DNA from: Candidatus Jordarchaeia archaeon
GTDB lineage: Archaea > Asgardarchaeota > Jordiarchaeia > Jordiarchaeales > Jordiarchaeaceae
DNA: 60,448 nt
NCBI GenBank assembly: GCA_029856435.1
Contig: JAHQXB010000079.1
Location: 1 to 60,448, forward strand
Reading direction: 5' to 3'
Made by a program: the position numbers and the translations under genes. Position 1 is the stretch's first letter. Each line of letters opens with the position of its first letter. The notes beneath the pieces were generated by a model. The model was not told where the DNA came from and searched no databases. It saw only the letters and a list, made by a program, of their open reading frames with translations. Positions 27,775 through 46,402 of the stretch are shown in pieces.

Positions 27775-27782
27775 AATCCTTA

Positions 27783-27839: not shown

Positions 27840-27895
27840 ACCAGGAGGATTAAAAAATTATAATTAAAAAAGGAGTGTGTGTTGGAGGAAAATAG

Positions 27896-28303: not shown

Positions 28304-28307
28304 TTAC

Positions 28308-28388
28308 GGTTACTCTCTGGATGATCCTGAATCGGTAAATTTCTGAGGGTCCAGGTGACATTCCTCGTAAGCGGAGGATTGAGTAACC
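28308..28388 (+). promoter_or_regulatory. SECIS-like element for mvhD
   Basis: ATGA(28321)-T-CCTGAATC-GGTAAATTTCTGA-GGGTCCAGG-TGAC, with a perfect outer stem GGTTACTC/GAGTAACC, starting 5 bp after the stop. Confidence 0.65.
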
Positions 28389-28420
28389 TCTAGCAGATAT
28401 CTTGAGTGGAGGTCACATAG

Positions 28421-29899: not shown

Positions 29900-31171
29900 C
29901 TACTTTGTTTCTATTTCAAATTCGCAGTAATCATTTCCCATAGCCATACACTTTGTTTCTTTGCAGATCCATTCTTTATTTGTAATCACTTGAAGGATGC
30001 CCACAAGAGCACCCCCAACAAAGGTGCAAACTGGCCTATCAGAATGGTTATAAGATAGTGCGATTGTAGAAATGCCCTTTATTTTTAATTTGCCAGTATC
30101 AACACTTCCCTCAATTGATAGTACCCTACCCCACCCCGAAACAGTGTTATATTTAAAGACTTCGAACAGGGGGTTTTTGTTATCTTTTAGCGACTCGGAT
30201 TTTATGAGAAGAGCCGCTCCACGCCCTACCTGCTTACCCAATTCGAGGAGGATTCTCTTGGATTCTTCTGGGCTGTGTTGTTTTTCTATGGCTTTAATAA
30301 ATAGTATGAGGGTCTGTATTGGGGTTATAATGTGGTTCCAGCCGAGTATTGAAACCTGACCCAATTCGTTGAACGACATACTCTCCTTCAATTTAGTGAA
30401 GGAGTCATAAAGTGGGAAAAGAGTGACGAACTTGTCGGGAGTAAAAAGGTAGGCGAATCTTTGATTCAAAATTTTGTGCGCCTCTCTTATCAAGGGAGTT
30501 CTTGAAATGTGTACGTATGATTGCCTTTTTTCTTCAACAGTTTCGAAACTAAAGTTTATGGCATAGTCAATAATATGAGTCAGGGTGCTAGTTACCTGTG
30601 GTTCATGAACATCGCGGTTTACTATCCCCAAGAATATTCCTCCATCGCCCTTAGCGTCGAGGGTTAATTTTCTGATCATTCTCAAAACAGTTTTTGAATC
30701 AAAGTCGATAATTGAGGAGCTTATATTGGCGTAAATTACAAGTATTGGAACATCCGGAAATTTTTGCTTAAGCCGAGATTTCGCCTCTTTTATTTCGTAA
30801 ATTATTCTCTTCGGCTCATTCGCTATCTCCCTAATATTCCTAACTTCATCATAAACTACTTTGGTTTTATTTTCGCTTGAAACCAAATCTAAAAAGTAGA
30901 AGCGGTCTTCCTGAATAGCCCTTTGAAAAATTGTATTCATTTTCTCTGAGAAATTCTTCTTAATTTGTCTATTAATTATTTCGAAGGGCAAATTTGTGTG
31001 GATCGTTATAACAGCTCCGCCTTTCCCCAAAAAATTTAAAGCTATTAGGGCCGCAAGTCTATTGGCATCGTTAAGTGTGAAGGAGTCCGACGTTACCAGA
31101 ATTGACAGGCCACTATATAGACGGCCTAATGTACTATCAATGTAATCAATTTCGGTTTTACGAATCTTCAA
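29900..31171 (-). CDS. Degenerate KaiC/RecA-like domain + C-terminal V4R domain (paralog 4)
   Basis: IDYIDSTLG.LYSG start with no Walker A; C-terminal VCTFVGG.L.GIL..W.CKE.KC.AMG..YCEF. Confidence 0.7.
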   Translation of the reverse strand: MKIRKTEIDYIDSTLGRLYSGLSILVTSDSFTLNDANRLAALIALNFLGKGGAVITIHTNLPFEIINRQIKKNFSEKMNTIFQRAIQEDRFYFLDLVSSENKTKVVYDEVRNIREIANEPKRIIYEIKEAKSRLKQKFPDVPILVIYANISSSIIDFDSKTVLRMIRKLTLDAKGDGGIFLGIVNRDVHEPQVTSTLTHIIDYAINFSFETVEEKRQSYVHISRTPLIREAHKILNQRFAYLFTPDKFVTLFPLYDSFTKLKESMSFNELGQVSILGWNHIITPIQTLILFIKAIEKQHSPEESKRILLELGKQVGRGAALLIKSESLKDNKNPLFEVFKYNTVSGWGRVLSIEGSVDTGKLKIKGISTIALSYNHSDRPVCTFVGGALVGILQVITNKEWICKETKCMAMGNDYCEFEIETK

Positions 31172-31265
31172 CTTTTCTCCCGACCTTCAAATTCTTAATG
31201 ATTATGTTAACGCTGTATAGCTTTCTCGGTATGCATTAGTGGTATATGTGTTGAATGCTGAATTT

Positions 31266-32540
31266 TTAAGGGGGCTGTTCAATTTTTGCCTCAAATACAC
31301 ACCATTCATCTCCCCTTGCTATGCAATGAGTTTCATTACAAATCCACTTCTTCCCTGTAACTCCTTCTAAAATGCCAGCCAAAATGCTTCCAACTAACAC
31401 GCAAACTTTGCGATTGGATTTGCCATAGTAGTAGGATAGCGTCATGAAATTGTAAATCTTAAATTCTCCAGATTCTGGGCTTCCCTCCCTCTTGATTAGT
31501 CTTCCCCATCCTCGAATCAAGAAGTAATTAAGCGCTTCCCTCAGCAAATAACTCCCTTCTAAACCATACCTTGATTTGAAGAGATTTGTGACCTCCAAAC
31601 CCAACTTTCTACCAAAACTCTCCATAAATTTTTCATATTCATTTATCCCCAAAGTCTTTTCAAGTTCTTTAAACAATAATAGGAATGTACTCAGGGGAGT
31701 GATCAAAAACTCCCTATCATGAATTAAAATTTTTCCCTCCTCATAGGAAATACTTCTCTTAAAATCGTCAAAAACCGGAGCCAAAGCGGGAAGCTTCACG
31801 AAAGTATCATTGTAAAAAATATAAGCGTACCTCTGGTAGATATTAGGTGAGCCTGGCTCCAAAACTGGAGACTTTAATACGCGAATGTAGGGCTGTTTTA
31901 AGCCTCCCCCTTCTTCGGATCTGAGTTCTACTACAAAATCAGCCAAGTGTATCAGCGTATTTAGTGTCAGAGCATCGTGAATGTCGCGATTAACTAGTCC
32001 CGTGATAATGTCTCCCCATCGCTTCACATTTGCAGTTAACTTTCTAAACATTTTTAACACAGTTTTTGAGCCAAAATCAAGAATAGACGAGCTAAAATTT
32101 TGGTACAAAATTATGAGAGGTGTCTCTGGCAAAACATTTTTAATTTTTTCTCTCAAGTGACTGACTTCAAACAGAATCCTGTCAGGGTCATTTTCAATTC
32201 TGAATACGCCCTTTAAACTACTCGAACCTTTGTGAAAAACATTGTTTGGCGTTGTATCGAGATAATAACATTTGCCTTCATTAAAGGCCTGCCAAATAAA
32301 ATTAATATCCTCTGGCGAAAACCTTGTTTGAATATCTTCATTTATCATAGAGGATGGCAAACTTGTTCCTAACACGATACCCCCTCCTCCTTGTTTAAGG
32401 AAATTTATGCCAACAAGAAGGTTGAGAGTTATAGCATCATTTAAAGTGAACGAATCGCATATAAACAAAATTGAAGTGCCGCCAAATAACGCGCCTAGGT
32501 GCGCATCTATGAATTTCACTAAGGTTTTTTCAATCCTCAA
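31266..32540 (-). CDS. Degenerate KaiC/RecA-like domain + V4R (paralog 3)
   Basis: Same architecture; VCVLVGS.L.GILE..W.CNE.HC.ARG..WCVF. Confidence 0.7.
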   Translation of the reverse strand: MRIEKTLVKFIDAHLGALFGGTSILFICDSFTLNDAITLNLLVGINFLKQGGGGIVLGTSLPSSMINEDIQTRFSPEDINFIWQAFNEGKCYYLDTTPNNVFHKGSSSLKGVFRIENDPDRILFEVSHLREKIKNVLPETPLIILYQNFSSSILDFGSKTVLKMFRKLTANVKRWGDIITGLVNRDIHDALTLNTLIHLADFVVELRSEEGGGLKQPYIRVLKSPVLEPGSPNIYQRYAYIFYNDTFVKLPALAPVFDDFKRSISYEEGKILIHDREFLITPLSTFLLLFKELEKTLGINEYEKFMESFGRKLGLEVTNLFKSRYGLEGSYLLREALNYFLIRGWGRLIKREGSPESGEFKIYNFMTLSYYYGKSNRKVCVLVGSILAGILEGVTGKKWICNETHCIARGDEWCVFEAKIEQPP

Positions 32541-32589
32541 ACCTTATCCCTCATTTTATAACTTTTAACCTCTTGAAAGACGTATGGTT

Positions 32590-33867
32590 TTAAGCCACAA
32601 GTTTTAATTCGAATTTACACCTACTATTTCCCTTGGCGATACACTCTTTTTCATCGCAAGTCCAGTTCCGTAGGGAGATTTCTTCTAAGATTCCCTGTAG
32701 AACGCCACCTTCAATTATACAGACGGGATAATCAGATTTTCCATAATGGGCAGCAAAGTTAGAATAGCCTTCAACTATTATGCGTCCGGATTTAAGGCTT
32801 CCTTCGTAAATGTTAAATTTGCCCCAACCAGTAATTGAGAGGTGGTTTATTGCAGCTTTAAAAAGTTCTTTGTCAGTTAGCTTGAATCGGGAAGACAGGA
32901 TCTTTAAAATATGTGACCCTATAAGCCTGCCTACATTTTTTACTATTTTTGTATATTCGCTTCTTCCCAGTTTTTTCTCAATTTCTTTTAGGAGAATTGT
33001 GAAGGTGGGCATCTCTGCAATAATGTAATTTGTGTCGTAGGCTATTACTTCCCCTCTTTCAAGATAGGAGATGCTTGCCTTCAACTCTTCAAAGGATGTA
33101 GGAATAGTAGGGAGAATGTAAAAAGTGTCCTCGAAAAGTTCATATGTGAATTTTTTGTATAATATTTTCTTATTATCCACGGATAGGGGTGTTCTAGTTA
33201 CAGACACGTAGGGTTGCTTTTTGCCTTCGATAAGATCTACCCCAAATTCAAGTATATAATCAGCTAAGTGGGCGAGAGAATTAGCCACGCTCAGTTCTTG
33301 CATATCCCGATTAAAGATTCCCAGAAACAAATCACCATGTATTTTAACGTCTAATATCAATTTTCTTATCATACTTAAAACGACTCCTGGTTCAAAATCT
33401 AAAATCAGGTAGCTGATATTTGATTGCAAAATGAGAACTGGGGCATCTGAAAAATTCTTAATTTTATTTCTTGCATTTAGAATTTCATATAAAATTCTGT
33501 TGAGGTCGTTTACAACAGGCGTAACATACTCTGAATGATTAAGAGTAAAGTTACTAATATTATCCTCCAGCACAATGTTAATATAGTGTAATCTACCCTC
33601 ATTTGTCGCCTCTTGTAGAACGCGTCTTACTTCCGGAGAGCTGAAATATAATACATCTTTTATTGCCCAAGAGAAGGGCAAGTTTTCATAGACAAAAACG
33701 CAACCTCCACCATTTTTCAAAATATTTAACGCCACCAGGCTTGCCAATTTTTGAGCATCATTTGCAGTGTTTGAATCCGCTGAGAACAATATTGGAAAAC
33801 CCTGGTAAAGAACGCCCAGAGACTGATCTAGAAACTCTATTCCAATTTTTTTAATTTTCAAATCCAC
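32590..33867 (-). CDS. Degenerate KaiC/RecA-like domain + V4R (paralog 2)
   Basis: IEFLDQSLG start; VCIIEGG.LQGILE..W.CDEKEC.AKG..RCKF. Confidence 0.7.
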   Translation of the reverse strand: MDLKIKKIGIEFLDQSLGVLYQGFPILFSADSNTANDAQKLASLVALNILKNGGGCVFVYENLPFSWAIKDVLYFSSPEVRRVLQEATNEGRLHYINIVLEDNISNFTLNHSEYVTPVVNDLNRILYEILNARNKIKNFSDAPVLILQSNISYLILDFEPGVVLSMIRKLILDVKIHGDLFLGIFNRDMQELSVANSLAHLADYILEFGVDLIEGKKQPYVSVTRTPLSVDNKKILYKKFTYELFEDTFYILPTIPTSFEELKASISYLERGEVIAYDTNYIIAEMPTFTILLKEIEKKLGRSEYTKIVKNVGRLIGSHILKILSSRFKLTDKELFKAAINHLSITGWGKFNIYEGSLKSGRIIVEGYSNFAAHYGKSDYPVCIIEGGVLQGILEEISLRNWTCDEKECIAKGNSRCKFELKLVA

Positions 33868-33920
33868 CCCACCTTAAAGACGAAAAATTGAGAATCTATA
33901 AAAATTTATTCTTGCCTAAA

Positions 33921-35204
33921 TCATATTTGGGTCAATTCAAATTCACAATAATTATCGCCCATAGCAATGCACCTTATCTCTTTACTTGTCCACTTTTTTC
34001 CGGTAATTTCTTGAACTGCTCCCAGTAAACTGCCTTCGATTAATAAGTCCACAGGCTTGTCTGATTTGCCCCACAATTCAGCTAAAGAGGAGTGAACTCT
34101 GACTTTTAGAGTACCGGATTCTAAGCTTCCCTCAATGTTTAGCACTCTGCCGTAGCCTCTAGCACCGACATACATTAGAGTTGAATGCAAAAGGCGATCC
34201 TCTTTAAGATTAAACTCTGATTCGACAATTCTAACGCTCTTAGCCCCGAAATCTTTACCAAGCTCCATAACAATGTTTCTATAGCCATCATAGTCTATAC
34301 TTTTTTCAAAATTTAATAGAAGACTCGCTAGAAGTTGGGTGGGAAGCACGAGGTGTTTCGTTCCCAGTATTGAAATTTCACCATTTTGATAAAAAACTTG
34401 TCCGTCTTCCAACTCGTCTAGATAGAAAGATGCTGGTGAAAAGGTTTCAAACTTGTTTCCAGAAATGTGGTAAGCAATTTTTTTGTGCAAAAGCTTCCTA
34501 GCAAATCCAACTAAGGGTGTCTTAGACACTTGCAAATAGGGACGAGGTAAGTCTTCTTTAAACTCTAATCCAAACTCCATAGTATAGTTTGAAAAATGTT
34601 TCAGAGTACTTGTTATTTCCAGCTCATGAATATCCCTGTTTAACACACCAATGAAAATACCCCCGTTCTGCTTTATGTTTGATATCAATTTTTTAAACAT
34701 ATTTAAGGCAGCCTTGGAATCGAAATCAACCATAGTAGAGCTAATATTATGATACAAGAGAATAACTGGGCTTTCGGGAAAACTTGCTCTCATTTTTTCC
34801 ATCGCGCGATTAGCTTCATATAATATTCTATCTATATCATTCCTAACAAGTACCAGCCCCACCAAACCCTCAAAATTTTCACCAGAAGGAAATTTGTCAG
34901 ACACAAGATCCAAATACGTGAAACGCCCCTCATCCATCGCCTTTGTTAAAGCATGGTACTTATCAGGCAGAAACATATGCTTAAATTTTTTCGCGGCCAA
35001 ACTGTGGGGCTCATCCGTTTGAACAGCAACACAGGACAATCCCTGATCCATTAGATTAAAGGCCGCCAACATGCTGAGTAGCAAGGCATCATTTAACGTA
35101 GCAGAGTCAGCTATGAAGAGTAATACCTGACCTCCAGAAACGCCTCCCAGAGAAAAGTCTACAACCGGAATCCTAGTTTCAAACTCCAAAACCCAATCCC
35201 TCAA
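33921..35204 (-). CDS. Degenerate KaiC/RecA-like domain + V4R (paralog 1)
   Basis: IPVVDFSLGG start; V4R lacks two Cys (PVDLL, WTSKE) but keeps C.AMG..YCEF. Confidence 0.7.
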   Translation of the reverse strand: MRDWVLEFETRIPVVDFSLGGVSGGQVLLFIADSATLNDALLLSMLAAFNLMDQGLSCVAVQTDEPHSLAAKKFKHMFLPDKYHALTKAMDEGRFTYLDLVSDKFPSGENFEGLVGLVLVRNDIDRILYEANRAMEKMRASFPESPVILLYHNISSTMVDFDSKAALNMFKKLISNIKQNGGIFIGVLNRDIHELEITSTLKHFSNYTMEFGLEFKEDLPRPYLQVSKTPLVGFARKLLHKKIAYHISGNKFETFSPASFYLDELEDGQVFYQNGEISILGTKHLVLPTQLLASLLLNFEKSIDYDGYRNIVMELGKDFGAKSVRIVESEFNLKEDRLLHSTLMYVGARGYGRVLNIEGSLESGTLKVRVHSSLAELWGKSDKPVDLLIEGSLLGAVQEITGKKWTSKEIRCIAMGDNYCEFELTQI

Positions 35205-35363: not shown

Positions 35364-36524
35364 TTAATTTTTGGTAGGTTTTATTTTGATTCTTTTGGTT
35401 ATAACGTTTCCTTCGTTGTCTTCGAAGGACATTTGGAAACTTTGAACATTCTTTTCACGCAACTCATAGTTGAGTTCCACTTCTTTTCCCGTCGGCAACC
35501 TTTTTATTCCCAGCATATAAGGTGCTGTTTCGAATAGCTCCTCCTTTATGCCAACCACTTTAATGGTAACGCCCTTAAGCTCCTGTTTCGTATTGTTTGT
35601 CACATGTATGACTAGTTTCTCTTTTTCTTTTTGTTCCACCGAAACCTCTATTGATTGTGGTAACAGTTTCCCTTTTAATATATTCTGGGCTTTTGCCTCT
35701 TCAAACAACCCCGCCTCTTCCATGGGAGGTAATACAATGTTTATCGGTATCTGGAACTTAATACTTTCACCAGTAACCTTTATACATGTAATATCAAGGT
35801 ACCAGTGGGAGTAAGCGCCAAATGTCTGAGACCACTGAGTTCTTTCGGTGGGCTCCCAGAAGTAGTTATAGCTGTGTTCAGCGTACTGCGGCACCCTGAT
35901 GGATAAGTAGCCCCGCGTAGGATTTTTTTCCTCAACAGTGGTCAAAATCTCTGGAGGATTCTTTTTAATGTGGACGCAAACCTTTGCATATTTGGGACAG
36001 GAACAACTAATATTTGAGTCATTAACCAAGTCTACGGTTAATAGTTTTAATCCCTCAGTCTTATAATTCAGTTTAATTACTTCACCAGGTTGAACAGCGT
36101 CCTTTTCGATGTTAAAGCTCATCCCCTTAATAGTAAGAGAAACAGGATTAGGCTCAAATCTCTGTTCCGACCTTATTTTGATGGGTTTCTCTGAAACAAT
36201 CTTGAACGCCTCACCATACCTATCTAGTTTCCCCACAGAAAGGGAAGCCCTAATGAGGTAGTGGACATTTTTTCGTATAAGGGTGGGAACCGCCCTTCTG
36301 CTTACAGAGAGCTCACGTTCTCTAACATAAGTTCCACTCTCAAGAAAGCCCTCACAGAATACCTCACTTGAAGATAAGGGAAGCTCGTTTCCACAGGGCA
36401 AGTTAGTGAGAAGAGTAACTCCACCCCACCAAACCTTTGTATCCTCAGCTAGGTCAAACTTGGTTACTGTTCTTATGGAAGAACCAGCCACTGCAAAATC
36501 TCTTGCGCGTAACTCTATCGACAT
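35364..36524 (-). CDS. Arrestin/Vps26-fold-like protein with a C-terminal beta module
   Basis: Two beta-rich lobes (GTY..E.EL.V...VPT...VHYLIRA and IEKDAVQPGEVI...LSIRVP...WYLDI), a CxC-x6-CxH insert and the shared C-terminal module. Confidence 0.5.
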   Translation of the reverse strand: MSIELRARDFAVAGSSIRTVTKFDLAEDTKVWWGGVTLLTNLPCGNELPLSSSEVFCEGFLESGTYVRERELSVSRRAVPTLIRKNVHYLIRASLSVGKLDRYGEAFKIVSEKPIKIRSEQRFEPNPVSLTIKGMSFNIEKDAVQPGEVIKLNYKTEGLKLLTVDLVNDSNISCSCPKYAKVCVHIKKNPPEILTTVEEKNPTRGYLSIRVPQYAEHSYNYFWEPTERTQWSQTFGAYSHWYLDITCIKVTGESIKFQIPINIVLPPMEEAGLFEEAKAQNILKGKLLPQSIEVSVEQKEKEKLVIHVTNNTKQELKGVTIKVVGIKEELFETAPYMLGIKRLPTGKEVELNYELREKNVQSFQMSFEDNEGNVITKRIKIKPTKN

Positions 36525-36565
36525 TAGTAACTACCCTAAATTTTGAATTATTTGTTTCCCCCATA

Positions 36566-37480
36566 CTAGCCTTCAGCGTGAGCTCTAACCACAAGATCAG
36601 CGAACATGGACATGTCAGAAAGCAATGTATCAATCTTCTCCTGAGCTTTTTTATCCAATTCCTGAGTCTTCATTATCAACACTGCGATTATGAATTTGAA
36701 CACATGAAGCGAAATCTCCTTACCACCATCCAGTCCCCGTCCAGTGAATTCCGCCGATTCAGACATAAAGAAGTTTTCCCTCAAATTATTACAAGCACTT
36801 ATGAAATCCCTCAGGTCTCCCCTCAGCTGTAATCCCGTACTAACTCCCTGAACATTATGCACAATCACATTACCCGAGGTGTCGCTAATAATGATTCTGG
36901 CGGGAATTTCACTTAACTGTTTCTGGGCAGTTTCAACATGCTTCTCCAGAGACTTGTAACTCGCAACCAATATGTCCCGAAATATTTCAGCGAGTCTCTC
37001 CTGCTCATAAATGGAAGTCACATGAAAAGTAGGATTCCACCTAGAGAACAAATCTAGGAATATACTCTTAGCCTTTTCAAGATTCGTATCAAGAAGCTCC
37101 TTAACATAATCCTTCAGATCATACTTGTGGAAGAAAATGTGCACCGCTGGCTTAATATTATTCTTTGTGAACAGGTCTATAATCTGTTTAAAGTACTCCT
37201 TCGCAGCATCGAAACTTTCAGGCTCATGAAGATCCACAACTGGAATCAAAACATCCGTACCCTGAAACACCTTAGGGTCACTAATATAAGATTCTCTGTA
37301 CTGCTCCTGACCACCAAAGTCAAAAATGGAAACCTCCAAGCCCAAAAAGGGATGCCTCCTAATCTCATACATAATAGTTGGAGCTGCGCCCACAGTCTGT
37401 TCAGGTTTTTTGCCAGCGAACGTTGTCAGATATATACTAGTTTTCCCACATCCTGAAAGTCCAACCAATGAGATTTTCAA
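36566..37480 (-). CDS. Rag/Gtr-type small GTPase with a C-terminal roadblock/longin-like domain
   Basis: GLSGCGKT (G1), PT (G2), DFGGQ (G3), HKYD (G4) and TSIYE (G5). HKxD and TSI are Rag-family hallmarks; ~120-aa alpha/beta C-domain. Confidence 0.8.
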   Translation of the reverse strand: MKISLVGLSGCGKTSIYLTTFAGKKPEQTVGAAPTIMYEIRRHPFLGLEVSIFDFGGQEQYRESYISDPKVFQGTDVLIPVVDLHEPESFDAAKEYFKQIIDLFTKNNIKPAVHIFFHKYDLKDYVKELLDTNLEKAKSIFLDLFSRWNPTFHVTSIYEQERLAEIFRDILVASYKSLEKHVETAQKQLSEIPARIIISDTSGNVIVHNVQGVSTGLQLRGDLRDFISACNNLRENFFMSESAEFTGRGLDGGKEISLHVFKFIIAVLIMKTQELDKKAQEKIDTLLSDMSMFADLVVRAHAEG

Positions 37481-37531
37481 GATTCTCTAACCTCCGCAAA
37501 GACTAAGAATCAAATAACTATTTAACATTTA

Positions 37532-39049
37532 TTATTCCGTTTTCTTACTCTCACCCAACTTTTTACCCTCGATTTCCTTTACACTAAGTTTCTGAGACAG
37601 AATAGTTCCCTGTCTATCAGAAATAGTCAACAAGTATTCCCTATCATCCTTAACCCGAGGATAACAAAATTCAAGCTCATCAAAAGGATACCATGTCTCA
37701 ATCTCAGTCTCCCAAGCGTTACTCTCAAACAAATCCTCCAAATGGGCAATCCTCACCTTAATATCATTTATGGGTTTCCCCGAATTATTCGCTAAAGTTA
37801 TCTGAAGCATAGTCCCACCATCAACAAACCGAGCATCCGAAACCTTCAGCAACTTCTGAAGAGCACGCTCAGTTATACCTGCCTTTGCCTCTGCTTTCTC
37901 CTCAACCAAAGGTATTGCCCCCCGCCGTTCCAAAGGTTCAGGAACCCCAGCCACTGTCGGAACATATTTCAAAACATAGGTTTGGCGTCTCCTCTCAGTG
38001 TACATTTGCACCTTCTTCAACCTCGCTAGATTCAACACCTTCTGCAAACCATCCCTATCCAAAGGCTGCAAAGTTAAATAACCATCCTCCATAGCATCCT
38101 CAAGAAGTTCATTAGCCACACCACTACGCACCAGAATAGTTGAATACCCATCAGGAGACCCAACACTCCCCACAGAGATGTCAGCCAACTCCGAAGTAAG
38201 ATCCCTACAATAATGACAACTTGTCGAACGATACTTATCAAGATCCTTTACCGGCCAACCAGCAGTCTTGTCACCATCATAAATTATGTTAAATTTGCCA
38301 GCAGATATGCTCATTTTACTGATGGAACTTAAAGGTATTCCCTGCTTCACCTCAAAGAACTCCTTCAAACCATCATGATAGAAGGAGTCCATACAGAACA
38401 GCCCCACCTTTAATATCTTCACCTTCATAAACAAGTGGAGCAAACCGAAAGGCTGCATCTGCATCTTAGCCACCGCATCTATATTACAAGGAGTACCCAC
38501 AAAAGCAATGGAACGATACCCCTTATCAATCGCCTCAACCAAAGCCTCAACAGTCCTACTGTGAGAATAAACACTACCAGAAGACTTTAAAATATCCTCA
38601 GAACTCGTAGCTATCTTTGCAACGGGCTTCCAAGGCTCCCTCTCATCCTTCTGAGTAACTATAGCCGCATCTATCAAACCATGATCCATAGCATACAATA
38701 GGAGGGAGGTTACAACCCCACCATCCTGACCCTTAACCTTATCTATCGCTGATTTGCCAACAAAAGCCGCGATGTAATCTCCAATCAAGGACTTCAGAGA
38801 AGTTATGGTTCTGGGACACGCACGGTAGCATATGCCACAAGCGCTGCATTTTCCAACTAATTTGGGTGTTTCGTCTTCCATCACGAGAGCCTTCTCGGGA
38901 CAAACTGAGACACAGGTGCAGCATGCTGTACAGACGCCGCTTCTTATAACTTCTTGATTTAGGCGTCCAAAGTTTTCAAGTTTTTTCACTTTTAAGAGTC
39001 TTTCGGGAAACGTGTAGCTTACGTATCCTTTTTCCTCCTCGTTTAACAT
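37532..39049 (-). CDS. FrhB-like Fe-S/flavin protein fused to a C-terminal beta module
   Basis: CTACCTCVSVCP and CSACGICYRACP, QDGGVVT, GTPC, GLFCM, CHYCRD..ADISVGSVGSP; then a linker and an ~80-aa module shared with 35364-36524 and 41463-42509. Confidence 0.8.
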   Translation of the reverse strand: MLNEEEKGYVSYTFPERLLKVKKLENFGRLNQEVIRSGVCTACCTCVSVCPEKALVMEDETPKLVGKCSACGICYRACPRTITSLKSLIGDYIAAFVGKSAIDKVKGQDGGVVTSLLLYAMDHGLIDAAIVTQKDEREPWKPVAKIATSSEDILKSSGSVYSHSRTVEALVEAIDKGYRSIAFVGTPCNIDAVAKMQMQPFGLLHLFMKVKILKVGLFCMDSFYHDGLKEFFEVKQGIPLSSISKMSISAGKFNIIYDGDKTAGWPVKDLDKYRSTSCHYCRDLTSELADISVGSVGSPDGYSTILVRSGVANELLEDAMEDGYLTLQPLDRDGLQKVLNLARLKKVQMYTERRRQTYVLKYVPTVAGVPEPLERRGAIPLVEEKAEAKAGITERALQKLLKVSDARFVDGGTMLQITLANNSGKPINDIKVRIAHLEDLFESNAWETEIETWYPFDELEFCYPRVKDDREYLLTISDRQGTILSQKLSVKEIEGKKLGESKKTE

Positions 39050-39331
39050 TTACCTGTCTCCTTTCGCTTCAGTTTCTACAGTTTCTGGACGTAAGTCAGG
39101 TCTTCAAACAGTGTAGGGTTATAGTAGGTATCTTTCAATTTGTTCCAGAGTTATAGTTGGAATTATATTACCGTCAAGTATATAAATTTTTTAGAAGACC
39201 TTAGACTTACGTTCTATAATCTTGTGAGCTTCAATAGTACAGTTTTTTGCGTATTTAATACTTTTTCGATTGTGAAGAATTTTGAGAAAATTGTTGGTTT
39301 ATGACGAAAAGCGTCCATATTTCTTCCATTT

Positions 39332-41407
39332 TTACATTTTTTGAGTGGAATCCGATGGTTGTTCTTCTTTTGGGGGCCACTCAAAAATAACCACAGTTAA
39401 ACAGATGAGGAAGGGCATGAAGGATAAGAAAATCTGCAGGTACTGAGAGTTCCCAAAGGGAATAATTCCCACCATTAGAACTGTGGGGTTTAATTCAGAG
39501 CTTTGAACACATATCCTTTGGGCGTCAGAGATGGTCTGATAGCCTTGAGAGTCTATCGCGCAGGCATAAAATACTATGCTGTGATTGTTGAAATAGGAGG
39601 AATCTATGGTAAAGCTGTGACTGGGGGCTAGCATTGGCGTTGAATTGATAATTACTTTATGATAGTCTGTAACCACTATTTCTAGACTGATTATTCCTTG
39701 GGGGTCGCTGCAAGAGATGTTGATTGTAAATTGTTCTCCGGGGCTGATGCTTGTGGGGGCGTTGATGTTGAAGATGGTGGGTTTGTCTGGTGTAGAGCCT
39801 ACTTCTAGGATTGTGGTGTTATAGAGATGGTTGGGTTTGGTTACTGTGATATTATATTTGCCAGTTGTGGGCGCTGGGATTTTTATTCGGCCTTGAGAGT
39901 CGGTGAGGTAAGTGTGATAATATTCTGTTCCTTGTATGCATATTAGGGCGTTGCTCACTGGGCGTCCTCCGCTGTTTTGGATTCTAATCTGCATTATTTG
40001 GCCCGGTGTGGGTGTGTATTCTGGTAGAATGATGCTTAAGTTTTGCGGGATGTTGGTCCATATGGGGAGCTCTGGGTCTCCTAGTAGGATGTATTCAAAG
40101 AATTCCTGTCTGTATATGCTGTTTTCAGCCATTCTAAATAGGCCCACCTTCTGGTAGTACTCCTGTTTACTTTGGTATAGGGCATAGCCAGCGCGTTGGG
40201 AAAAAAGGCCGTCATCAGTGTGGAGGAGTATTTCAAAGAATAATGCGTCCAGAAGAGAATCTGATAAATCATTAATGTTGTCTCCACCATAACTTGTTCT
40301 GGTAGCTCCAATATAGGATATTGCTCCACCATCTGGGTTCTTTAACATAGCCTCACCTAAGCAATCCCCTGCATAGTCTAGACGTGCTGTTGAGCAGGCC
40401 GAAGCAAAAACTAGGGGCAACCTATAACTGTTATTTGAACTCGAAGCATAAGTGGAGTCATAGTAACTGCCGGAGCTTTCAGATCGGTAAACTGAAGTGG
40501 GGGAACCGTGCGAGCATAGGTTGACTATTGCGCATCCATTGTTTATTGCATTTCTAAAATTGTCTAAAGTTAAATTGGTATAACTGCGGATGGAGTCGTA
40601 AAATAGAGTGGTAAAGTTCATGTTTAGATCTTTGGGGAAAATATAGTCTCGGATGTAGTTTTTGATTCGCCATCCCTGAATGTTTCCGCTCTGGCTTAGT
40701 TGGCCTCCCGCGAAAACAGCCATTTGCATCCAGTCCCCGATATAGTTGGCTATTTCTATTTCGTAGGTAAGTATCTTGTTTATCATGTCTTCAAGCTCGG
40801 TTATGTTTGAGGCTGGAAGTCTTCCAACGTATAGTTCTGGAATCCAATCTATCTCGCCAAATTCCCCGTATAACTCATTTCCATTATTGTCAAAGGTTCC
40901 ATTCAGAGCGGCGTAGTAATAGTCGCTTGGTACATTGTCCAGTCCAGTCCAAAAGTATCTTGTGGGAATTATGCTGACGTCGCCTGCCAGTAGGACCCAG
41001 CGAATATTCCACTGATTGTATGCGTCTATCAGAAAGTTGCGTAATTTTGATTGATTGTCGTTTCCGGGATAGTTTTCGTAGATGTAGGTTGTGTTGAATA
41101 TGGTTGCGGGTATTCCTTTTTGTGTTTTCCATTCCGCAAATTGGACTAGGTGGGGGTTGTTGGCCCATTCTGGGGGGGCTATTATTATGTACTGTGTGGT
41201 GTTTGTTTTAAGAATTAGTGGCGTGGGGATGTCTTGTATTTGTAGGGCTTGCTGGTTTTGTGAGATAACTGTGGGTATCCAAGTGTTGGGTGCGGGGAGG
41301 AGTAGAAGTGTGGCTCCTAGGGTTATCAGGAGTATTAGGAATCCAAGCTTTATGAGTGAATTTCTCAATGTGAACACTCCTATTTCTGGAAATGGGGGAA
41401 TCCTCAA
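39332..41407 (-). CDS. Secreted, membrane-anchored C25 (gingipain-family) cysteine peptidase
   Basis: N-terminal signal/TM; YIIIAP, VLLAGD..IIP, SDYYY, VGRLPA, catalytic HG (CSHGS) and SACS, LLGDP; Ig-like region and C-terminal TM helix. Confidence 0.85.
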   Translation of the reverse strand: MRIPPFPEIGVFTLRNSLIKLGFLILLITLGATLLLLPAPNTWIPTVISQNQQALQIQDIPTPLILKTNTTQYIIIAPPEWANNPHLVQFAEWKTQKGIPATIFNTTYIYENYPGNDNQSKLRNFLIDAYNQWNIRWVLLAGDVSIIPTRYFWTGLDNVPSDYYYAALNGTFDNNGNELYGEFGEIDWIPELYVGRLPASNITELEDMINKILTYEIEIANYIGDWMQMAVFAGGQLSQSGNIQGWRIKNYIRDYIFPKDLNMNFTTLFYDSIRSYTNLTLDNFRNAINNGCAIVNLCSHGSPTSVYRSESSGSYYDSTYASSSNNSYRLPLVFASACSTARLDYAGDCLGEAMLKNPDGGAISYIGATRTSYGGDNINDLSDSLLDALFFEILLHTDDGLFSQRAGYALYQSKQEYYQKVGLFRMAENSIYRQEFFEYILLGDPELPIWTNIPQNLSIILPEYTPTPGQIMQIRIQNSGGRPVSNALICIQGTEYYHTYLTDSQGRIKIPAPTTGKYNITVTKPNHLYNTTILEVGSTPDKPTIFNINAPTSISPGEQFTINISCSDPQGIISLEIVVTDYHKVIINSTPMLAPSHSFTIDSSYFNNHSIVFYACAIDSQGYQTISDAQRICVQSSELNPTVLMVGIIPFGNSQYLQIFLSFMPFLICLTVVIFEWPPKEEQPSDSTQKM

Positions 41408-41462
41408 CTAGTATAGTTTTTTATGATTTGGGGGTTGTTTCCCAAGATTTGTTTTTTGGGGT

Positions 41463-42509
41463 TTATTCCATTTCTTTTATTGAGATTCTTTTTACTAGTA
41501 GTTTGTTGGTTCGGTCTTCTATTTTTAGGATGTATTCGCCGTTGTTGTCGACTCGGGGATATTGGAATACTAGTTCTTCGTAGGGGAACCAGATTTCTAC
41601 TGTTGTGTCCCAGGAGTAGGTTTCAAAAAATTCTTCGATGTGAGCGATGGATATTTTTATGTTTTCCAGTCCTTTTTCAGAGTTGTTCTTGACGGTTATT
41701 TTTAGTTTTTTCTTGTTATCGGTGAATTCTACGCCCACCAGTTCTATGGGGCTTTCGGGAATGTGCTCGATGGCTCTGGTTTCTATGGCGCTTTTTCCGG
41801 ATAGCGGGACAGACCTGGTTTGGGGGCCACTTAAACCGTAAATGTTGCTGAGAAGGAAGTATATTAGGTTTCTCTGTTTCTCCACATCGCTCTGTAGGGC
41901 CTCCATTAATTCTGACGATATTATTGGTATGGATATCTCGCATATGTTCAGGAGATTATTTTCGATTTCTTCCCCTTCCTTAATAATTTTGTTATCTTCT
42001 TGGGTTCTTATAGGTTTGCAACGAGCCAAATCCTTCTCTATTAAGAGGTAAAGCTTGTCCTGCAAGCTCTCTCTGATTTTCTGAAGTATAACGCTGAGCA
42101 ACTTATCTCCTAAAGGTTTAGCTAAACCCACGGGTACACTGATTATGAGAACAAAAACCTCCTCTGTCTCAGGAGACATACCTGCCCTTTGTTTTTCCCT
42201 AGCTGACTTCGCCTTAAACTTCGTGGCGGCATAAACCTTCCCCCCAAACTCCAAATCCACGCGGTTCAGCCCCTCTTTGAAATCGTCTGCTCCCAGCCAC
42301 CAGACAGGATGCTTCTGAATAATTCTCAGCGTCTCCAAATCATTCTTAAGACTCTCTGGGCATGTAAATAGGGCAAGATGTCCTTTGGTTTCGTGAAAGT
42401 AGCACAGGTAAATGCCAATCAAACCCTCTAAAATATTTGGGTGTCGCTCTTCCTTCTTTTGTTGAAATTCTAGACCCTTAATTACATTATCATCCGAATT
42501 TTTAGACAT
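41463..42509 (-). CDS. uDENN/longin (NPRL2/FLCN-like) protein with a C-terminal beta module
   Basis: IYLCYFHETKGHLALFTCPE resembles the uDENN first hairpin (I....F....G..+.+..PE); Arg-rich loop KSAREKQRAG; shared C-terminal module. Start moved to MSKNS. Confidence 0.55.
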   Translation of the reverse strand: MSKNSDDNVIKGLEFQQKKEERHPNILEGLIGIYLCYFHETKGHLALFTCPESLKNDLETLRIIQKHPVWWLGADDFKEGLNRVDLEFGGKVYAATKFKAKSAREKQRAGMSPETEEVFVLIISVPVGLAKPLGDKLLSVILQKIRESLQDKLYLLIEKDLARCKPIRTQEDNKIIKEGEEIENNLLNICEISIPIISSELMEALQSDVEKQRNLIYFLLSNIYGLSGPQTRSVPLSGKSAIETRAIEHIPESPIELVGVEFTDNKKKLKITVKNNSEKGLENIKISIAHIEEFFETYSWDTTVEIWFPYEELVFQYPRVDNNGEYILKIEDRTNKLLVKRISIKEME

Positions 42510-42617: not shown

Positions 42618-43190
42618 TTAAACTCTTTTTTCAGCTGTATCCTTAGGTTGTAACTGGATCTCGTAATACCGTGTGTATTTTTTGAATTGGTTAACCCATT
42701 TTTTACTAATGACGCCCACAATCTGTCCCTGTTTATTAACAACTCCGACCCGCTTCACTTTAGTTTTGTCAAAGAGGGCTCTTAACTCGTCCATAGAAAC
42801 GTCCTCGCTCACCGTTATGATATCTCTAACCATCACATCTCCCGCTTTATAAATTCGGGGATCCTTCTCCTTAGCCACCAAACGGAATATGACTCCATCT
42901 GTGATTATTCCAACAACCTTGTCGTTATCATCTTTTACGAATACTGAGCTTATCCAGTTATCCACCATTAGTTTTGCTACTTTGGGCAGGGAATCGTTGA
43001 CATGACAGGTTATCACGTCACGACTTGCGGCGTTGACTATTGAGAATTTTTCCTTATCTTCAGTTGACAATGTTTCCACCAAATTTTTATGAATCCATCT
43101 GTTGATACCTTTTTTGATTAGGCTTTTATACTTTTTTAATGTGCTAACAGGACTAAATTGTTCTTGTGTGTCTAGGGATGCAAAAGGCAC
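42618..43190 (-). CDS. CBS-domain pair protein
   Basis: VAKLMVDNWISSVFV...VVGIITDG..FR and VGVV...IVGVIS; start uncertain. Confidence 0.85.
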   Translation of the reverse strand: MPFASLDTQEQFSPVSTLKKYKSLIKKGINRWIHKNLVETLSTEDKEKFSIVNAASRDVITCHVNDSLPKVAKLMVDNWISSVFVKDDNDKVVGIITDGVIFRLVAKEKDPRIYKAGDVMVRDIITVSEDVSMDELRALFDKTKVKRVGVVNKQGQIVGVISKKWVNQFKKYTRYYEIQLQPKDTAEKRV

Positions 43191-43433
43191 TGTTTTGTGT
43201 AGTTTTTTGTTTTTTCACCCTTTTTATTAATTTGCGTAATTTATTCATATTTTTGGAGGTTTTCAATTAAAGAGCAATGTTAAAAAGGAAAATTGTGCAA
43301 ATGGGGCAGCGTTATTGGTAAATAAATATTTGATATTTGCATTCGCCTTTTGGGAAGGATGACGGTAGATAGAGTTAAAATTGTTTTTTGGCTAGGTAGA
43401 ATTTAATTGAGGACTGTTTTAGAGGTTGTGGAA

Positions 43434-44801
43434 ATGGTATTAAAGCACCAGTACATATCAGCAACCGAGAAAGATAAGAAGGCTATGTTAGACGAACTCG
43501 GTATCAGAAGCGTTGAGGAACTATATAGGGATATACCGAAAAAAATTAGGTTGAATAGGCCACTGGACCTTCCCAGCCCGCTGGTGGAGGCTGATTTGAA
43601 GCAGTTTATTGAGCAGATGATGGATAAGAATGTTACACATAAGGATATGCCTGTTTTTTTGGGCTCGGGGGTCTGGCTTCACTACGTTCCAGCAGTGGTA
43701 AGGTCGCTGGCTTTTCTTCCAGAATTTTTAACTTCCTATACTCCCTACCAGCCGGAGGTTTCTCAGGGAATCCTTCAAGCTTTGTTCGAGTATCAAAGTA
43801 TGATCTGTGAGATTACAGGTATGGATGTGGCTAATGCTTCTATGTATGATTGGGCATCCGCGCTTGGTGAGGCTGCATTAATGGCGGGGAGAGTAACCAG
43901 AAGGGAGGAAATTTTAATACCTAAGATAATTCATCCCGAAAGAAAAGCCACACTTGAAACATATACGCATAACATAATGAGTTTTAAAGAGATTCCTTAT
44001 GACGCGGAGACAGGAACCATCGACGTCAACGCTTTGAACAATATGATTTCTGAGAAAACTGCAGCAGTATATGTAGAGAACCCAAACTATTTTGGTGTGA
44101 TGGAACATGAAGTTGCCGAAATTAGCGGTATAGCTCACGAAAACGGCGCCTTATTTATGGTGGGTGTAGATCCTACTTCTTTGGGCGTTCTTGCGCCACC
44201 AGGAGAATATGGTGCGGATATCGTGATTGGAGAGGGACAACCCCTTGGCGTTGACCCATCTTTTGGGGGCCCCTTGATTGGACTATTTGCCTGTCGAGAT
44301 GACAAGGCGTTAATAAGAAATATGCCCGGAAGACTCATTGGTATGACTGAGGACGCACGGGGAAATCGCTGTTTTACAATAACCTTGCAGACCCGAGAGC
44401 AACACATTCGCAGAGAGAAGGCCACAAGTAATATCTGCTCTAATGAGGCACTTTGCGCAGTTCAGGTGGCAATATATCTTGCTTGCGTGGGACCAAACGG
44501 GCTGGCCCAGCTGGGAGAGACCTGTATGGCCAACGCTAAATACGTGATGAAAAAGATAAATGAAATAGAAGGATTTACTGCACCGATATTTCATTCGCCT
44601 CATTTCAAGGAATTTACAGTTAAATCTCAGAGATCTGCAGAGGAGGTTCACAGAATGCTGTTGGATAGAGGGGTACATGGAGGTAAAATCATTAAAAATG
44701 AGTTCCCAGAGCTTGGAGAAGCTAGCCTCTACAGCGTAACTGAGATCCACAGCCTCGAAGATATGGAAAAATTGTTAGAAGCTCTCACAGAAATCGCGTA
44801 G
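43434..44801 (+). CDS. gcvPA: Glycine dehydrogenase (decarboxylating) subunit 1
   Basis: TSYTPYQPEVSQG, NASMYD and REQHIRREKATSNICSNE. Confidence 0.95.
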   Translation: MVLKHQYISATEKDKKAMLDELGIRSVEELYRDIPKKIRLNRPLDLPSPLVEADLKQFIEQMMDKNVTHKDMPVFLGSGVWLHYVPAVVRSLAFLPEFLTSYTPYQPEVSQGILQALFEYQSMICEITGMDVANASMYDWASALGEAALMAGRVTRREEILIPKIIHPERKATLETYTHNIMSFKEIPYDAETGTIDVNALNNMISEKTAAVYVENPNYFGVMEHEVAEISGIAHENGALFMVGVDPTSLGVLAPPGEYGADIVIGEGQPLGVDPSFGGPLIGLFACRDDKALIRNMPGRLIGMTEDARGNRCFTITLQTREQHIRREKATSNICSNEALCAVQVAIYLACVGPNGLAQLGETCMANAKYVMKKINEIEGFTAPIFHSPHFKEFTVKSQRSAEEVHRMLLDRGVHGGKIIKNEFPELGEASLYSVTEIHSLEDMEKLLEALTEIA

Positions 44802-44857
44802 TTCAAGATAGGAGGTTAAGGGAAGAAACAGTGTTTGTGGTTTGAGGAGGTTATGAA

Positions 44858-46402
44858 ATGTCTGAGGGATTTAAACAAGCTATCTGGAAGGAAAAAGAGA
44901 AGGTGCTGGAGCCACTCATATTTGAGATAAGTGTACCGGGTAGAGTTGGACATATTTTGCCCAAGGCTTGTGACAAAGTTCTTAGAGAAGTTGGAGATGT
45001 GCTGAAAAGTATTCCGGAAAAAATCAGGAGAAAAACTCCAGTCAATCTGCCTGAGGTATCAGAAATACAGTTAACTAGGCACTATCTCCATCTCGCCCAG
45101 ATGAACTATGCGGTGGATTTAGGTTTTTACCCTCTGGGTTCCTGTACAATGAAGTACAATCCAAGGATAAATGAAGAAATAGCCAGAATGGACAAGATTT
45201 CAAGACTTCACCCATATCAAGACGCCTCTACGGTTCAGGGAGCCTTGGAGTTGCTCTACCGTTTAGAAAAAATACTCGCAGAAATCTCGGGAATGGCACG
45301 GGTTACCTTGCAACCTTCTGCGGGGGCTCATGGAGAACTAACCGGCCTCTGTATAATAAGAAAATACCATGAAGATAAGGGAGAAATTCAGAATAGAAGG
45401 GAAATAATTGTACCAGATTCGGCTCATGGAACCAACCCTGCGAGTGCTAATATGGCTGGTTTTAATGTAGTGACAATTCCATCCTCCAAAGAGGGCTGTG
45501 TTGACCTAGAAGCCCTAAGAGCCATAGTGGGGAAACAAACAGCGGGCCTTATGCTTACCAACCCTAACACGCTGGGCATATTTGAGGAGGACATACTGGA
45601 AATTTCACACATTATTCATAATGTTGGTGGCCTCCTATACTATGATGGAGCTAACTTGAACGGAGTTTTGAATAAGGTTAGACCGGGAGATATGGGGTTT
45701 GACATTGTTCACTTCAATCTGCATAAAACCTTTTCTACGCCTCATGGTGGAGGAGGCCCAGGCGCGGGACCAGTAGGAGTAAAGGAGGAGTTGGTTCCCT
45801 ATCTACCGATACCCACGATCGAGTACGACGAGAAGAAGGGCATTTACTACTTGGAGTATGATAGGCCTAAGTCCATAGGAAAGATGAAGGGGTTCTACGG
45901 GAACTTCGGGGTAATCGTCAAAGCTTACTCCTACATTCTTTCACTTGGAGCTAAGGGATTAAATGAGGTCGCTGAGGTTGCGGTTCTTAATGCCAATTAC
46001 TTGGCAAAAAAAATTAGTGAAATACCCGGATTCGGTCTCCCCTACGCTGAAAAGCCTCGTAAGCATGAGTGCGTGATAAGCGCCGCAAAACTGAAGGCTG
46101 AAACTGGCGTCACCGCATTTGACGTAGCGAAAAGAATACTGGATTTTGGGATACACGCACCAGTTGTTTACTTTCCCCAGATAGTTGAGGAGGCACTAAT
46201 GATTGAGCCAACAGAAACTGAAACTAAGGAAAACTTAGACACTTTTGTTTCGGTGATGAGAAAGATATCCAGCGAAGCCTATGGTGAAAAAGAAAAGGTT
46301 CTGAACGCCCCCCATAATACCTCAGTGGGCAGAGTGGATGAGGTTAGAGCAGCCAGAAAACCAATACTGAGTTGGAAAATGTATCAGAAATATAAAAGTT
46401 AG
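44858..46402 (+). CDS. gcvPB: Glycine dehydrogenase (decarboxylating) subunit 2
   Basis: YPLGSCTMKYNP, AHGTNPASA and NLHKTFSTPHGGGGPG (PLP Lys). Confidence 0.96.
   Translation: MSEGFKQAIWKEKEKVLEPLIFEISVPGRVGHILPKACDKVLREVGDVLKSIPEKIRRKTPVNLPEVSEIQLTRHYLHLAQMNYAVDLGFYPLGSCTMKYNPRINEEIARMDKISRLHPYQDASTVQGALELLYRLEKILAEISGMARVTLQPSAGAHGELTGLCIIRKYHEDKGEIQNRREIIVPDSAHGTNPASANMAGFNVVTIPSSKEGCVDLEALRAIVGKQTAGLMLTNPNTLGIFEEDILEISHIIHNVGGLLYYDGANLNGVLNKVRPGDMGFDIVHFNLHKTFSTPHGGGGPGAGPVGVKEELVPYLPIPTIEYDEKKGIYYLEYDRPKSIGKMKGFYGNFGVIVKAYSYILSLGAKGLNEVAEVAVLNANYLAKKISEIPGFGLPYAEKPRKHECVISAAKLKAETGVTAFDVAKRILDFGIHAPVVYFPQIVEEALMIEPTETETKENLDTFVSVMRKISSEAYGEKEKVLNAPHNTSVGRVDEVRAARKPILSWKMYQKYKS

Follow-up and report, generated by a model that had tools for sequence, protein, structure and literature searches.

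Asgard genomes are rich in small GTPases, longins and roadblock proteins, but few regulators have been matched to their GTPases, and gene layout is said to be of rare help (PMC10933270). Does a gene cluster of Candidatus Jordarchaeia archaeon provide such a match? The cluster lies in contig JAHQXB010000079.1 of assembly GCA_029856435.1 (source genome of 3.54 Mb, 97.8% complete), the window being the whole stretch of 60,448 nucleotides that was analysed. In order of transcription, all on the minus strand, it encodes a small protein with a CBS pair, a longin-domain protein (LNG), a C25 peptidase, an FrhB-family Fe-S flavoprotein (the FrhB-like protein), a Rag/Gtr-type GTPase and an arrestin-fold protein (ARR). 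The arrangement of these genes is far beyond chance: one C-terminal domain is common to LNG, the FrhB-like protein and ARR and is found nowhere else in the genome, and the set as a group is encountered again in about ten Asgard families. The genes very probably form a functional module. That this module is a conserved Asgard multi-protein switch around one Rag/Gtr-type GTPase, with the partner roles proposed below, is given a probability of about 0.5.

An initial annotation, made from the letters of this DNA, had read the locus as a proto-Rag/GATOR signalling system. The protein identities, folds and synteny behind that reading hold, whereas no sequence search placed LNG in the NPR2, Folliculin or DENN families, no DENN core was found and the peptidase does not belong to the module. 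It had described the FrhB-like, GTPase and arrestin-like genes as co-oriented and separated by 52 and 41 bp; the orientation, the coordinates and the 41-bp gap between GTPase and ARR genes are correct, but the FrhB–GTPase gap measures 51 bp. A gap of 282 bp precedes the FrhB gene. The longin-like gene placed upstream, beyond one peptidase gene, has the coordinates given for it, and its longin fold was recovered by both Foldseek and VIA-align.

A C-terminal domain common to three proteins

LNG, the FrhB-like protein and ARR end in homologous stretches of ~93 residues: blastp aligns those of LNG and the FrhB-like protein at 46% identity (2e-28) and connects those of ARR to LNG at 4e-6. This domain (C-dom) is encoded on the minus strand at 41475..41753 in LNG (delimited by blastp to the FrhB-like C-terminus), at 37577..37855 in the FrhB-like protein (blastp and a hidden Markov model, HMM) and at 35379..35657 in ARR (blastp, and the HMM at 1.5e-22). 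The HMM, built from 43 copies, finds only three open reading frames (ORFs) in the 3.5-Mb genome, namely those of LNG, the FrhB-like protein and ARR. With a profile of 31 copies, 125 clusters were recovered from 1.84 billion (1.84e9) representative proteins, nearly all of these clusters having the lengths and domain positions of LNG, FrhB-like proteins, ARR or an LNG–CBS fusion. Searched against Pfam to E = 10, the 31 copies gave no consistent family match. The fold is an immunoglobulin (Ig)-like sandwich with VIA-align Z-scores of 7–8.4 to HAP2 D3 and SKICH domains. Weak profile matches pointed to giant Ig-repeat proteins, one of them of the ASH/Cep192/HYDIN type; hhalign gave them a probability of 5%, and assignment to ASH was rejected. 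Being common to three otherwise unrelated proteins, the C-dom is the strongest link in the locus; it had been missed by the initial annotation, as had the CBS partner. A role as docking module is probable.

Recurrence of the gene set in Asgard families

Four hundred Asgard genomes were surveyed, ARR being counted at E ≤ 1e-30 and the GTPase ortholog at E ≤ 1e-60; families are designated f1, f2 and so on. LNG was found in 175 of the 400 genomes and the GTPase ortholog in 156, mostly as one copy with a second match in a few. LNG, the GTPase ortholog and ARR occupy the same families (f1, f2, f15–18, f20, f21 and f32), f11, which has no ARR, being the one exception, and all three are lacking in more than 20 other families, including f3, f5–10, f12–14, f19 and f22–30. 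The co-occurrence that the initial annotation wished to see surveyed is indeed found, since about ten Asgard families possess the set and at least eight have it clustered, in differing gene orders.

The order is CBS–LNG–CBS pair–FrhB–GTPase–ARR in f15 (Helarchaeota by name), where no peptidase is present, and FrhB–GTPase–ARR–LNG–CBS in f21; f17 has CBS, an LNG–CBS fusion, FrhB, GTPase and, in part, ARR, and f32 has all four genes within 9 kb. In f11, two tandem LNG genes are accompanied by CBS, FrhB and GTPase genes, without ARR. In f20 (Lokiarchaeota by name, 135 genomes), the FrhB and GTPase genes are always adjacent, ARR is 0–80 kb off, and LNG lies elsewhere, followed by a GNAT gene. Wherever both fall in the examined region, the FrhB gene directly precedes the GTPase gene, the exception being f11, where they are neighbours in convergent orientation.

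At the Lokiarchaeia LNG loci (L029–L040, e.g. L030:3313-3798), the gene after the longin gene encodes a GNAT acetyltransferase of ~160 aa. An HMG-CoA-synthase/DUF35-type fusion and a thiolase are often next, which places acetyl-CoA enzymes beside the candidate regulator.

One rival explanation is that these genes lie next to one another with no function in common, and that shuffling has spread a generic Ig-like domain as their tail. It can point to the commonness of Ig-like sandwiches, to tail Z-scores that are unspecific at 7–8.4 and to the separation of LNG from the GTPase gene in Lokiarchaeia, but a shuffled generic domain would have to be reconciled with a tail limited to three ORFs of the genome and to 125 clusters in 1.84e9 proteins, nearly all of three architectures. 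It would also have to account for matching phyletic patterns, for clusters in differing orders in at least eight families and for the existence of an LNG–CBS fusion. This explanation is hardly credible.

A GTPase of the Rag/Gtr type

HKxD and TSI motifs at G4 and G5, together with a C-terminal roadblock domain, are hallmarks of Rag/Gtr GTPases. The GTPase of the module (304 aa; 36566..37480, minus strand) has a G domain from residue 1 to ~175 and a C-terminal domain at ~180–304. The HKxD and TSI motifs named by the initial annotation occur here as HKYD (118–121) and TSI (155–157), which are invariant in 11 orthologs along with GLSGCGKTS (7–15), T35 and DFGGQ (54–58). In the PDB profile search, HKYD and TSIY align with HKMD and TSIWD of RagA/Gtr1. 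Identity across Asgard families is 56–71%.

Among Pfam families, Gtr1_RagA matches best (7.6e-20, 71.8 bits), ahead of Arf (4e-12, 46.4 bits) and Ras (2e-9, 37.6 bits). When a profile of the 11 orthologs is compared with the PDB, ranks 1–23 are all Rag/Gtr chains (1e-28 to 2e-9) and Arf proteins follow from 4e-8. The top entry, 8yl2, is named 'GTP-binding protein' (1e-28); Gtr1 and RagA stand at ~1e-19 to 1e-20, and RagC/D and Gtr2 at 1e-9 to 1e-12. A literature search did not find the paper that describes PDB entries 8YL2, 8ZLA and 8YQG. This ranking of profiles agrees with the initial annotation in placing the protein with Rag-like rather than Arf-like families, and it supports assignment to the Rag/Gtr type, nearer RagA/Gtr1 than RagC/Gtr2 and far from Arf. 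Public records label the orthologs 'ADP-ribosylation factor-like', 'GTPase SAR1 family protein' or hypothetical; the Arf-like and SAR1 names are unsupported, because the profile ranking places these proteins with Rag/Gtr.

The C-terminal region of 120 aa is conserved, and HMM alignments extend to residue 206–228 of Rag-type chains. By ESM features, the nearest neighbours of residues 178–304 are eukaryotic Gtr1_RagA clusters (0.85), a similarity taken as a lead only. The source genome has a single ortholog, and a second copy (~1e-126) is present in some Lokiarchaeia genera. A longer GTPase ORF in the source genome (422 aa from stop to stop; contig C76:207-1472) matches the module GTPase at 1.8e-16 in phmmer.

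The longin protein as candidate regulator

LNG (348 aa; 41463..42509, minus strand) has three parts, namely a longin domain, helices and the C-dom. Its sequence gave no match in Pfam or the PDB. Its start was set at the ATG used by orthologs, a longer ORF extending to 42551. The AlphaFold2 model, made with 12 close sequences, has the topology b-b-a-b-b-b-a-a, after which come long helices and then a sandwich at the C-terminus; structural matches cover residues 26–205 and 247–348, of which the longin domain with the following helices (residues ~26–205 by VIA-align) corresponds to 41895..42434. In Foldseek, NPRL2/Npr2 chains of GATOR1/SEAC lead at 1.3e-3 to 7e-3, followed by FNIP2 and NPRL3. VIA-align, run once as a search in its own right and once to re-examine the comparison, gives Sec22b (Z 11.1, 120 aa), NPRL2 (6ces_N; Z 10.1, 138 aa, root-mean-square deviation 3.6), the Lokiarchaeal roadblock-longin 8yqg (Z 9.9) and FLCN (Z 9.6–9.7; 8dhb_J 9.6). 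With VIA-align Z-scores of 10–11 and NPRL2 chains first in Foldseek, the N-terminal domain is a longin, as annotated at the outset. The longin fold is certain, and a specific kinship with NPRL2 or FLCN is not, because the Z-scores are tied.

uDENN/longin GTPase-activating proteins (GAPs), namely NPRL2 in GATOR1 and FLCN, regulate Rag/Gtr GTPases with an arginine finger. Two conserved features of LNG are consistent with such a role. The protein carries IYLCYFHETKGHLALFTCPE at residues 33–52 and, at 104–110, the REKQRAG loop noted in the initial annotation, and in 20 orthologs (down to 29% identity) F38, E40, G43, S102, R104, K106, R108 and G110 are invariant. The first three belong to a YFDExxGH motif directly before strand b2, in which H44 is at least 90% conserved. 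The pair G43-H44 (42378..42383, minus strand; located by alignment of the 20 orthologs, with strands at 32–39 and 44–50 in the model) occupies the GP-motif position, and the residue after the glycine is H, or Q, N or L in some copies. The remaining invariant residues form S102-x-R104-x-K106-x-R108-A-G110 in the b4–b5 loop (42180..42206, minus strand), the candidate arginine-finger loop. When model residues 25–207 are mapped by range to NPRL2 3–164, Arg78 of NPRL2 falls near model residue 100, a position that is approximate; the pLDDT (predicted local distance difference test score) of the loop is <50. A GP motif at the end of the b1–b2 loop and an arginine finger mark GAP-type longins, and both occur in some Asgard longins, according to retrieved passages of PMC12290439. 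In longin GAP heterodimers, one subunit carries the finger, as in NPRL2/NPRL3, FLCN/FNIP2 and SMCR8/C9orf72 (passages of PMC12290439 and PMC8213707).

A comparable asymmetry is seen in lineages with tandem longin paralogs (L051:5436-7554, genome G075; L052:12814-14915, genome G067; also L053 and L054). In the f11 pair, LNG-b keeps FFDExQGH and a TRRxKRRxG loop, and LNG-a keeps only the Gly, its loop being deleted. One Lokiarchaeia genus has a second LNG copy with a degenerate loop and GN for GH, a milder asymmetry than that of f11. A protein of 450 aa (P0046) was considered as a new architecture and rejected, since it belongs to the LNG type and differs by its divergent N-terminus. In the ESM-Atlas neighbour cluster of LNG, PF06218 (NPR2) is present in 19% of members, which again is a lead only.

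A number of points weigh against the proposed switch. The confidence of the LNG model is low (pLDDT 56), including in the Arg loop itself (<50). No NPR2 (PF06218), Folliculin or DENN/uDENN match was obtained for 32 family members searched against Pfam to E = 10, and the LNG profile compared with the PDB, also as the longin core alone, gave no sequence link to NPR2, Folliculin or DENN; the string resemblance to NPRL2 suggested in the initial annotation was reproduced by no sequence search. Structural comparisons of LNG yielded no DENN match, residues 206–250 being poorly modelled. The longin GAPs known so far form heterodimers and carry DENN-type C-lobes, but the window contains one longin gene and no DENN. 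The Pro of the GP motif is replaced by His. VIA-align Z-scores for NPRL2 and FLCN are level with those of SNARE and adaptor longins, and most longins are guanine-nucleotide exchange factors (GEFs) or platforms rather than GAPs. In Lokiarchaeia, tens to hundreds of kb separate the LNG gene from that of the GTPase. A roadblock fold for the C-terminal domain of the GTPase is a candidate assignment only. Finally, related genomes are not independent, so that the phyletic match overstates the support and co-occurrence is counted as about ten lineage-level observations.

Several of these points favour a different reading of the same module, in which LNG would be a GEF or a nucleotide-state-specific platform (cf. 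Mon1-Ccz1, DENN, TRAPP, Ragulator and MglB-type proteins) and its conserved basic loop would bind a partner or a phosphorylated ligand. Such functions are the rule among longin and roadblock partners of small GTPases; Mon1-Ccz1, Fuzzy-Inturned, BLOC-3, TRAPP and DENND1A are found at VIA-align Z-scores of 7–9.7, near NPRL2 and FLCN, and an intact GP motif (GH in LNG) and a sequence match to NPR2 or Folliculin are wanting. What this reading leaves aside is that NPRL2/Npr2 chains top the Foldseek ranking, that two invariant Arg lie in the b4–b5 loop at about the place where range mapping puts NPRL2 Arg78, and that the loop is lost in one paralog of tandem pairs, mirroring GAP heterodimers. A GEF or platform is regarded as unlikely. 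A complex prediction of the GTPase with LNG 25–348, GTP and Mg returned 0.41, 0.00 and 0.00 in its runs, which is evidence neither way. That LNG regulates the module GTPase is considered probable; that it does so specifically as an arginine-finger GAP is a tentative prediction from its conserved residues, held at somewhat less than even odds.

The flavoprotein, the CBS protein and the peptidase

The FrhB-like protein (505 aa; 37532..39049, minus strand) comprises a 2x[4Fe-4S] ferredoxin part, FrhB_N, FrhB_C and the C-dom. The identity proposed in the initial annotation is borne out by Pfam matches above the gathering score to Fer4, FrhB_FdhB_N (1.1e-22, 80.3 bits) and FrhB_FdhB_C (1.2e-42, 145.8 bits). 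The protein is below NCBIfam cut-offs, with 257 bits against 269 for PRK09325 and 209.5 against 331.5 for TIGR03289, the FrhB equivalog. Invariant in 14 sequences are C40/43/46/50, C68/71/74/78, QDGG at 108–111 and C188/219/278/281, the cysteines presumably being Fe-S ligands (three clusters in all) and QDGG the flavin site. Since all cofactor-ligand residues are kept, the protein appears redox-competent rather than degenerate.

A gene set for HdrA-like, MvhD and FrhB2 proteins lies at 25600-29854, ~6 kb from the module, and its FrhB2 is the closest paralog of the module flavoprotein (36% identity). HdrA/FrhB2 genes, homologs of 26449-29854, also occur within ~10 kb or less of module genes in f1, f15, f17, f32 and one f20 genus (recurrence loci of HdrA/MvhD/FrhB2: L024, L025, L026, L033 and L036/L047).

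The adjacency of FrhB-like and GTPase genes, wherever both are in the examined region, and the three Fe-S clusters predicted for the flavoprotein might suggest that the GTPase is an assembly or maturation factor, inserting cofactor like G3E-type GTPases, with the other proteins as accessory chaperones. This is very improbable, for the GTPase is of Rag/Gtr type with a Rag-like C-terminal region, not SIMIBI/G3E, no comparable GTPase accompanies FrhB2, the paralog in the Hdr operon, within the window, and arrestin and longin partners are without precedent in cofactor insertion.

The small CBS-pair protein is encoded at 42618..43190 (minus strand) by an ORF of 190 aa from a GTG, with a Pfam CBS match of 1.6e-20 in two stretches; its true start is probably further downstream, because orthologs have ~150–165 aa. 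A CBS ortholog adjoins the longin gene in f1, f2, f15, f16, f17, f21 and f11, and in f16/f17 the longin protein itself carries a fused CBS pair.

Between the LNG and FrhB genes, 39332..41407 (minus strand) encodes a C25 (gingipain/PorU-like) peptidase with hydrophobic N- and C-terminal segments (Pfam Peptidase_C25, 5.9e-68). It sits within the cluster only in f1 and f2, the Jordarchaeia/Freyarchaeia families, and is absent from the clusters of f15, f17, f21, f11 and f20. It was rejected as a module member and is a lineage-specific insertion.

The arrestin-fold protein

ARR (386 aa; 35364..36524, minus strand) has an arrestin/Vps26-fold part from residue 1 to ~265, followed by the C-dom. Its AlphaFold2 model (12 sequences; pLDDT 82) contains two arrestin-type sandwiches to residue ~265 and then a third sandwich. 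The best Foldseek matches are Vps26C (1.9e-11) and Vps26A (2.5e-10, TM-score on target 0.53), with Vps26A/B at ~1e-9 to 1e-10; ARRD-6, TXNIP, Rgp1 and visual and beta-arrestins follow (arrestin-1 2.1e-7, arrestins in general to 1e-7). The arrestin-like label of the initial annotation is confirmed by this model as an arrestin/Vps26 fold. ARR matched no Pfam family at E ≤ 0.01 and no NCBIfam entry. Four cysteines, C44, C174, C176 and C183, are kept without exception by orthologs as distant as 30% identity, and the model is poor around 179–183; this conservation suggests that they likely form a metal or redox site, perhaps bridging the two arrestin lobes. Rgp1, which works with small GTPases, and TXNIP, which has thioredoxin as redox partner, are precedents in the arrestin clan.

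These fold matches also bear on the possibility that the module is a sorting or localisation device, in which the GTPase, LNG and ARR would recruit or sequester an FrhB-family enzyme, with an HdrA-type complex, at a membrane or an assembly, the flavoprotein being cargo or output. Vps26, alpha-arrestins and Rgp1, the best fold matches of ARR, are cargo or GTPase adaptors; the flavoprotein keeps all its catalytic cofactor ligands and resembles a working enzyme; HdrA/FrhB2 operons recur beside the module, and eukaryotic Rags act by recruiting an effector. Yet the association with CBS and GNAT proteins fits metabolic sensing better, and no membrane-related Pfam family was found in LNG, the FrhB-like protein, the GTPase or ARR, lipidation motifs and anchors not having been specifically searched. 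A sorting device is considered quite unlikely.

Proposed mechanism

The switch proposed here would be assembled through the C-dom, a common docking module gathering LNG, the FrhB-like protein and ARR at a single site, which would be a scaffold used by all three or the GTPase itself, perhaps at its C-terminal dimerisation domain. LNG would be a GAP-type regulator of the GTPase, acting via its SxRxKxRxG loop and the G-H motif at the GP-motif position. The adjacent or fused CBS pair would tune LNG and report adenine-nucleotide or energy status. The flavoprotein would couple the switch to the redox state of F420 or ferredoxin, or to the neighbouring HdrA-type complex, as an input or as a regulated output, and ARR would be an adaptor or effector. 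Mutual binding of the partners, the direction of signalling and GAP chemistry are what we infer from this ensemble; a sensor role of the FrhB-like protein, an adaptor role of ARR and an ancestor–descendant link to TORC1 signalling may be suggested in the same manner.

In its fullest form, the proposal would make the module the archaeal counterpart of the Rag–GATOR1/FLCN switch: one Rag-like GTPase, an Arg-loop longin GAP gated by a CBS energy sensor, redox wiring via a tail-docked flavoprotein and output through ARR. This extended version is possible rather than probable. If it is true, Rag nutrient signalling arose from the sensing of redox and energy state, at a time when neither TOR nor lysosomes existed. 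The redox/adenylate link, if true, would in itself show a role of the Rag switch before TORC1.

Relation to known systems

The closest known systems are the eukaryotic Rag/Gtr GTPases with GATOR1/SEACIT NPRL2–NPRL3 and FLCN–FNIP (SMCR8–C9orf72 for Arf). The module shares with them a GTPase whose G domain is RagA/Gtr1-like, bears HKxD and TSI motifs and is followed by a long C-terminal domain, a longin domain with a conserved Gly before b2 and an invariant Arg in the b4–b5 loop and, in some lineages, tandem longins with the Arg loop in one copy only, as in NPRL2/NPRL3-type pairs. Like Rag systems, it would be tied to sensors of metabolic state. It differs from GATOR1 and FLCN in that LNG has no detectable NPR2 or Folliculin homology and no recognised DENN/NPRL C-lobe, with GH for GP, and from the eukaryotic Rag system in the absence of DEPDC5, Ragulator and TOR. 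Also unlike eukaryotic Rag, the source genome has a single GTPase ortholog, so that there is no obvious A/C heterodimer. The Asgard partners are an Fe-S flavoprotein, ARR and CBS/GNAT proteins, not amino-acid sensors, and a private Ig-like tail is the presumed link.

ARR has the same two sandwiches as the arrestin clan (Vps26, TXNIP and Rgp1 of the Ric1–Rgp1 Rab6 GEF; 1.9e-11 to 1e-7, TM-score ~0.5 on target), from which it differs by having no Pfam Arrestin or Vps26 match, by the private Ig-like domain that comes third in the chain and by its four invariant Cys. Unlike retromer and retriever, its locus has no Vps35 or Vps29 genes. The flavoprotein resembles FrhB, FdhB and FpoF, which are F420-reactive subunits with flavin adenine dinucleotide and [4Fe-4S] clusters, in FrhB_N/C, cluster Cys and QDGG, and it has a 2x[4Fe-4S] N-terminus as in FpoF; unlike them, it has a private tail and is encoded with a GTPase, not with hydrogenase, formate dehydrogenase or Fpo subunits.

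RagA-like GTPases, NPRL2-like longins and FLCN/SMCR8-type longins have already been reported in Asgard archaea, as seen in passages of bioRxiv 10.1101/2020.10.19.343400, PMC10933270 and PMC12290439. In the retrieved passages of the first (Liu et al.), a LAMTOR1-like/Rab-like/DENN operon is described, and its GTPase is stressed as not being Rag (bioRxiv 10.1101/2020.10.19.343400). In those of Tran et al. 2024, GTPase genes of MK-D1 are generally outside operons with longin or roadblock genes (PMC10933270), and a 2025 paper in Traffic asks, in its retrieved part, whether Rag or Arf-related GTPases partner GAP-like Asgard longins (PMC12290439). An operon linking a Rag-family GTPase to a longin, as here, is not reported in these passages, which also contain no arrestin partner and no shared tail domain; in the portions available, FrhB is unmentioned in all three sources, and arrestin occurs 0 times in Liu et al. 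as in Tran et al. Our literature search found no publication that describes the module or joins Asgard, Rag, longin and FrhB. The GTPase and longin classes were known in Asgard archaea, and what is new is the partner set around a Rag GTPase with a longin regulator, and the private C-dom as a probable docking domain.

The module singles out a Rag-type GTPase, a longin candidate whose loop is a defined target for mutation and three further partners, linked by a shared domain, so that the regulator question becomes testable with recombinant proteins. Because genomes of Lokiarchaeia, Jordarchaeia and Freyarchaeia and of the Helarchaeota type all conserve the module, it may be present in cultured Lokiarchaeia strains.

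Neighbouring genes

Directly downstream of the module, at 29900-35204, stand four tandem genes for KaiC-like-V4R paralogs of 423–427 aa, the last with a V4R match in Pfam at 6.3e-11. They were considered as module members and rejected, being syntenic in the same genus only. On the other side, the two subunits of GcvP (glycine dehydrogenase) are encoded at 43407-46402, divergently from the CBS gene, and they too are syntenic in the same genus only.

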